DNA of 64,000 nucleotides from Escherichia phage 132: sequence record MZ417521; one strand, 5' to 3'. This document shows positions 39,823-40,278 of the stretch, piece after piece. The notes under the pieces are model-generated. The model made no database searches. It was not told where the DNA came from and saw only the letters and a list, made by a program, of their open reading frames with translations. Position 1 is the stretch's first letter. Every line of letters starts with the position of its first letter. Both the position numbers and the translations under genes were made by a program.

Positions 39823-40278
39823 TTATTTTAAATCATCTGCCCAATCGAGTTTAAGAGGCTCTTTGTATTCACGATCTAATACGACCGGAATTTGTACATC
39901 ACCGCTAAATGATAAGGGCCCAACATTATAAGACAATGTTATATGCGGTGTGTAATCATCAAAATCATGTGTAGCACCTAGTGCCCGCGCATACATGTGT
40001 CGACAGCGCAGATATTCAGAATCTAGCACAAGTACAAGAGTCGATCCATCTTGTGTTTTCCATACTTCTAAATGTCCAGAAGAAGCTACTTCAAAACTTC
40101 CACTTGATGGAACATACGGAACATTTACCCTTGAATAACATATGGTCGAATGAATTTTTTCTCTAGGAACTGGATTAGGAACACGTAAAGAGCGCTGAAG
40201 TTCTTCCAGCGCATCAAGTGTTAATTCTGAAAACTTAGCTGCTACATAAAGACCCGTTGAAAAGTCTTTAAATTCCAT
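39823..40278 (-). CDS. 57B: 2H-phosphoesterase family protein, Acb1-like (T4 57B position)
   Basis: 151 aa; two H-x-T/S motifs (HSTICY and HITLSY); immediately upstream of 57A. Confidence 0.65.

Follow-up and report, generated by a model that had tools for sequence, protein, structure and literature searches.

Acb1 activity was discovered in gp57B of phage T4, a protein studied by both biochemical and genetic experiments (Hobbs et al. 2022, PMC9117128); the initial annotation of the locus described here was right to call T4 57B the founding Acb1. Recombinant T4 Acb1 cleaves cyclic di- and trinucleotides that contain adenosine (3'3'-cGAMP, cUA, cAAA) in a metal-independent manner and does not cleave cGG; the 2'-5' linkage of 3'2'-cGAMP is spared as well (PMC9117128). 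Acb1 is a compact 2H phosphoesterase, the C-terminal residues of which close as a lid on the bound cyclic dinucleotide (PMC9117128). Its active site is an HxT/HxT tetrad formed by H44, T46, H113, and T115, and the H44A/H113A mutant is catalytically dead (PMC9117128). The enzyme strains its ligand so that the 2'-OH of adenosine attacks the 3'-5' bond, and the cut, 3' of the adenosine, is made in two metal-independent steps via a cyclic phosphate intermediate (PMC9117128). Two structures of Acb1 from Erwinia phage FBB1 have been reported, in the apo form (PDB ID: 7T26) and with 3'3'-cGAMP (PDB ID: 7T27), in which residues 145-152 form the lid over the bound ligand (PMC9117128).

Functionally, Acb1 blocks the activation of the effectors Cap5, Cap4, and CapV in vitro (PMC9117128). 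During T4 infection, its activity appears from about 15 minutes, and the cleavage of cGAMP by lysates is lost with T4 delta-acb1 (PMC9117128). This mutant grows normally on hosts without CBASS, but on E. coli with an active CBASS operon its defect exceeds 300-fold (PMC9117128). In the T4 genome, acb1 adjoins ipI, whose product inhibits the restriction enzyme GmrS/GmrD, and the surroundings have been described as an anti-defence neighbourhood (Hobbs et al., PMC9117128). Acb1 also exposes phages to Panoptes guard systems, whose firing is set off by depletion of their decoy cyclic nucleotides (PMC13577387). Tevenvirinae with an intact acb1 (Bas35-37) are restricted by Panoptes, whereas some Tevenvirinae with a disrupted acb1, such as Bas43, escape it (PMC13577387).

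The locus analysed here lies in a 64,000-nucleotide stretch of Escherichia phage 132 (sequence record MZ417521), hereafter "the window". It harbors a gene that is almost certainly the acb1 (T4 57B) of a T4-like phage (Tequatrovirus), encoding a small, metal-independent anti-CBASS phosphodiesterase of the 2H fold. The gene and its relevant segments are the following:

39823..40278, minus strand: coding sequence of acb1 (gene 57B), 151 codons followed by a TAA stop, from the ORF list and re-translation.
40144..40152, minus strand: first catalytic HxT motif, H43-S44-T45 (H44/T46 in T4 numbering), lying over HTT of FBB1 Acb1.
39937..39945, minus strand: second catalytic HxT motif, H112-I113-T114 (H113/T115 in T4 numbering), within a PHITLSYN stretch identical in FBB1 Acb1.
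39826..39849, minus strand: C-terminal eight residues LDWADDLK, putative equivalent of the substrate lid, from alignment position.

The gene starts with the ATG at 40278 and stops at 39823-39825 on the minus strand. In its 151-residue product, the first histidine of HSTICY is residue 43 and that of HITLSY residue 112; the coordinates, the length, and both motifs given in the initial annotation are thus exact. Two ORFs of the plus strand fall inside acb1 (39981-40166 and 39995-40138), and are rejected as incidental because of the overwhelming homology of the minus-strand frame.

Identification rests on comparisons over the whole length of the protein. With RefSeq NC_000866 as the T4 reference for both protein and nucleotides, the product aligns without gaps to residues 2-152 of T4 gp57B (NP_049750.1), all 151 residues being identical. 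A codon-by-codon count over the nucleotide alignment finds four differences between the two coding sequences, in codons 45, 50, 54, and 58, all synonymous. The Pfam Acb1 model (PF23474, cut-off 27 bits) matches residues 8-149 with 202.7 bits (E = 2.6e-60) over profile positions 1-144 of 144, a full-length match above the curated threshold. In sequence, the protein is therefore T4 Acb1 itself, beyond merely "Acb1-like". The finding is the correct identification of a gene already known and experimentally characterised.

The initial annotation had taken the two H-x-T/S motifs as the hallmark of the 2H fold; alone, however, they carry little statistical weight. The product possesses five histidines and 15% Ser+Thr, and at least two HxT/S motifs are found in 16.6% of 100,000 composition-preserving shuffles, so that the motif pair alone is not significant. 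The significance of the ORF comes from the whole-length homology, namely the Pfam Acb1 score and the identity to T4 gp57B, and not from the motifs alone. The function had likewise been drawn from motif and synteny only: the synteny holds, and the assignment can now rest on identity to a characterised enzyme.

Among proteins of known structure, a PDB sequence search returns Acb1 of Erwinia phage FBB1 (7T26/7T27) with E = 4.1e-62. By BLASTP, 68% of the positions are identical and 85% positive in a 142-residue alignment that contains one single-residue gap. The HST of the query falls over the HTT of FBB1, and PHITLSYN is the same in both proteins, with no register shift: H43/T45 and H112/T114 coincide with the H44/T46/H113/T115 tetrad at an offset of one residue. 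A failure of the catalytic histidines to align with those of Acb1 had been named beforehand as a possible refutation of the assignment, and they align in register. Taken together, the T4 gp57B identity, the Pfam Acb1 match, and the FBB1 register support the assignment of the 57B gene to an Acb1-like 2H phosphoesterase more strongly than was first claimed. Since 142 of the 144 residues of 7T26_A are aligned and, at 68% identity to a solved chain, the fold follows from established knowledge, the protein is expected to share the compact 2H phosphoesterase fold with its C-terminal lid, LDWADDLK being the probable counterpart of the FBB1 lid. To our knowledge, no structure of the T4-type Acb1 sequence itself exists.

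The same protein has often been named otherwise. "RNA ligase" is the product name in the T4 RefSeq record, the description of PHROG 755, and a name used by many GenBank phage records, and an enzyme of the LigT / 2'-5' RNA ligase type, acting in RNA ligation or RNA repair, would share the 2H fold with Acb1. The Pfam 2_5_RNA_ligase2 model (PF13563) does match the product, with E = 0.11, but its 13 bits fall below the curated 27-bit cut-off and cover residues 80-122 only, against 202.7 bits over the whole protein for the Acb1 model. Moreover, the identical T4 protein is a demonstrated cyclic-oligonucleotide phosphodiesterase with an anti-CBASS phenotype, and "RNA ligase" is a label transferred automatically from the superfamily rather than a function established by tests. 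An RNA ligase is thus a very improbable reading. The name "anti-CBASS protein Acb1" is already the annotation in some recent records.

The genes preceding acb1, and a site that follows it, are the following:

40278..40508, minus strand: gene 57A, tail-fibre assembly helper (Pfam PF17594 GP57, E = 1.2e-50), immediately 5' of acb1.
40508..41233, minus strand: gene 1, dNMP kinase (Pfam PF21448 DNMK, E = 2.3e-107), first of the overlapping 1-57A-57B run.
39781..39809, minus strand: promoter-like site from a consensus scan (TTTACA, 17-nt spacer, TACTAT, upstream TG), 3' of the acb1 stop and before the first internal-protein gene.

The initial annotation had placed acb1 upstream of 57A, which is true only in plus-strand coordinates; on the coding (minus) strand, acb1 lies immediately downstream of 57A. 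The gene order 3, 1, 57A, 57B is shared with T4, W143, and vB_EcoM_P8. At both the gene 1/57A and the 57A/57B junctions, a one-base TAATG overlap joins each stop to the next start, an arrangement consistent with genes 1, 57A, and 57B forming one translationally coupled unit. The second junction differs from that of T4. In T4 it reads GAATGATGG, the TGA stop of 57A overlapping an ATG-ATG start, whereas in the window it reads GAATAATGG, with a TAA stop overlapping a single ATG. At this junction (window 40278-40300, minus strand), 57A is 12 nt (4 aa) shorter than in T4 towards its C-terminal end, in addition to its TAA instead of TGA stop. The base change that converts the 57A TGA into TAA also converts the first 57B ATG of T4 into ATA, and T4's annotated first Met is therefore absent here, leaving a protein of 151 residues instead of the 152 of T4 gp57B. 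The records of W143 and vB_EcoM_P8 likewise annotate a 57B gene of 456 nt. An effect of the missing Met is unlikely, because this residue lies outside the FBB1 crystallised core (G8-D152) and outside the Pfam model.

The promoter-like site at 39781-39809 probably serves the next gene and not acb1, and would mark the 3' boundary of the acb1 unit. Its position is suggestive at most, the promoter and terminator consensus scan of 39000-42000 yielding sites no more numerous than in shuffles. T4 has a similar promoter-like sequence in the same place, between 57B and the downstream gene. Over the 20 kb around acb1, the best records share ~96-97% identity with the window, across 92-97% of the length. 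The window phage is a Tequatrovirus close to T4, but not T4.

Downstream of acb1, the locus continues as follows:

39475-39744, minus strand: internal-protein gene, PHROG "internal head protein" family 7673 (E = 1e-54).
39106-39411, minus strand: internal-protein gene, PHROG "internal head protein" family 2667 (E = 2e-41).
37224-38051, minus strand: ten contiguous tRNA genes (Arg, Asn, Tyr, Met (CAT), Thr, Ser, Pro, Gly, Leu, and Gln).

The succession expected of a 57B locus is thus found, from 57A to 57B, the internal-head-protein PHROGs, and the tRNA cluster. Its cargo differs from that of T4, which carries ipI downstream of 57B where two different internal-head-protein genes stand here. Both internal proteins begin with MKTFKEFINEA, the first seven residues of which, MKTFKEF, also open T4 IpI; this shared start looks like a capsid-targeting leader. 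On these assignments, the internal-protein cargo adjoining acb1 is swapped relative to T4, and the anti-defence neighbourhood is preserved with a different cargo. The 39475-39744 ORF can be extended to a TTG at 39756, but it is with the ATG at 39744 as start that the family model is matched over its whole length.

Between the internal-protein genes and the tRNA cluster, at the position of T4 trna.4, trna.3, and trna.2, lie three small ORFs of 61, 135, and 95 aa (window 38149-39032, minus strand), for which no Pfam matches were found. The tRNA cluster also departs from that of T4, where eight tRNA genes are found, with segB inserted between Arg and Ile, as compared to ten contiguous genes here. 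The tRNA arrangement of vB_EcoM_P8 is the same as in the window. A tRNA with a CAT anticodon occupies the position of T4's tRNA-Ile.

The acb1 gene might anchor, as its conserved element, an anti-defence island that undergoes recombination, in which the swapped, capsid-targeted internal proteins might inhibit other host defences, and the changes at the junction might alter translational coupling and hence Acb1 dosage. This proposal is speculative and rather doubtful, and nothing in the data requires it; were it true, Acb1 dosage could balance the evasion of CBASS against the triggering of Panoptes-type guard systems.

Acb1 homologues were found by tblastn in 1470 of 50,697 phage records, with at least 99% protein identity in 498 of the 1470. 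The identity of the remaining homologues extends down to about 31%, a level reached among Vibrio, Aeromonas, Acinetobacter, and Salicola phages. In Escherichia phage BYEP02 (record H36, OR757454.1, 89372-89901), the match is 100% identical but falls in two pieces that extend over 530 nt, as compared to 453 nt. This pattern suggests that the BYEP02 acb1 is split by an insertion or a frameshift, and this copy may be a naturally occurring inactive allele, like those that allow escape from Panoptes.

Disrupted alleles of acb1 are indeed natural and arise readily under Panoptes selection (PMC13577387), and the two-piece match of BYEP02 raises the question of whether the copy in the window could also be inactivated or decaying, a mere remnant. 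Here, however, the frame is uninterrupted between its ATG and its stop, neither catalytic motif is missing, and the product has zero amino-acid differences from the active T4 Acb1. A pseudogene or a Bas43-like inactive allele was rejected on the basis of this intact ORF, which carries only synonymous changes relative to T4, and the probability left to a decayed copy is close to nil.

An intact acb1 is thus the reading retained and, because the protein is the same, the activity, the mechanism, and the in vivo role of T4 Acb1 are expected to carry over to the window phage. During infection, the enzyme would cleave 3'3'-cGAMP, cUA, cAAA, and cAAG at the 3'-5' bond located 3' of adenosine, H43/T45 and H112/T114 acting as the acid-base tetrad and the reaction passing through a 2',3'-cyclic phosphate intermediate. 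With the signal destroyed, the CBASS effectors (nucleases and phospholipases) would stay off, and the infected cell would not kill itself before the phage replicates. The gene is the last of the overlapping run of genes 1, 57A, and 57B, adjoining a variable internal-protein locus, as in T4.

An acb1 that is intact and identical to that of T4 at the protein level predicts resistance to many CBASS types together with sensitivity to Panoptes. Acb1 is one of the main routes of T-even phages past cyclic-oligonucleotide immunity, and at the same time serves as the trigger exploited by Panoptes guard systems (PMC13577387). The identification brings no new biology, and is of use for genome annotation and the prediction of host range.

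The protein can be compared with several known systems. Other 2H phosphoesterases (LigT / 2'-5' RNA ligase) resemble it in their two HxT/S motifs and in fold class (PMC9117128), but the substrates of the LigT type are RNA ends, whereas those of Acb1 are cyclic oligonucleotide immune signals. In the PDB, 9Q2G/9Q2Y ("Anti-CBASS protein Acb1", 165 aa), in which HVTVLY and HLTLAY align with the two histidine motifs and the domain order is the same, represent a more distant Acb1 chain, the match to 9Q2G being weak (E = 0.0044) and ending at query residue 118. With FBB1 Acb1, both HxT motifs and PHITLSYN are conserved and the C-terminal lid region can be aligned, while roughly a third of the residues differ, most of them on the surface. 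Finally, with T4 Acb1, the 151 residues, the HxT/HxT tetrad, the place following 57A, and the neighbouring genes 1, 3, and 2 are all the same.
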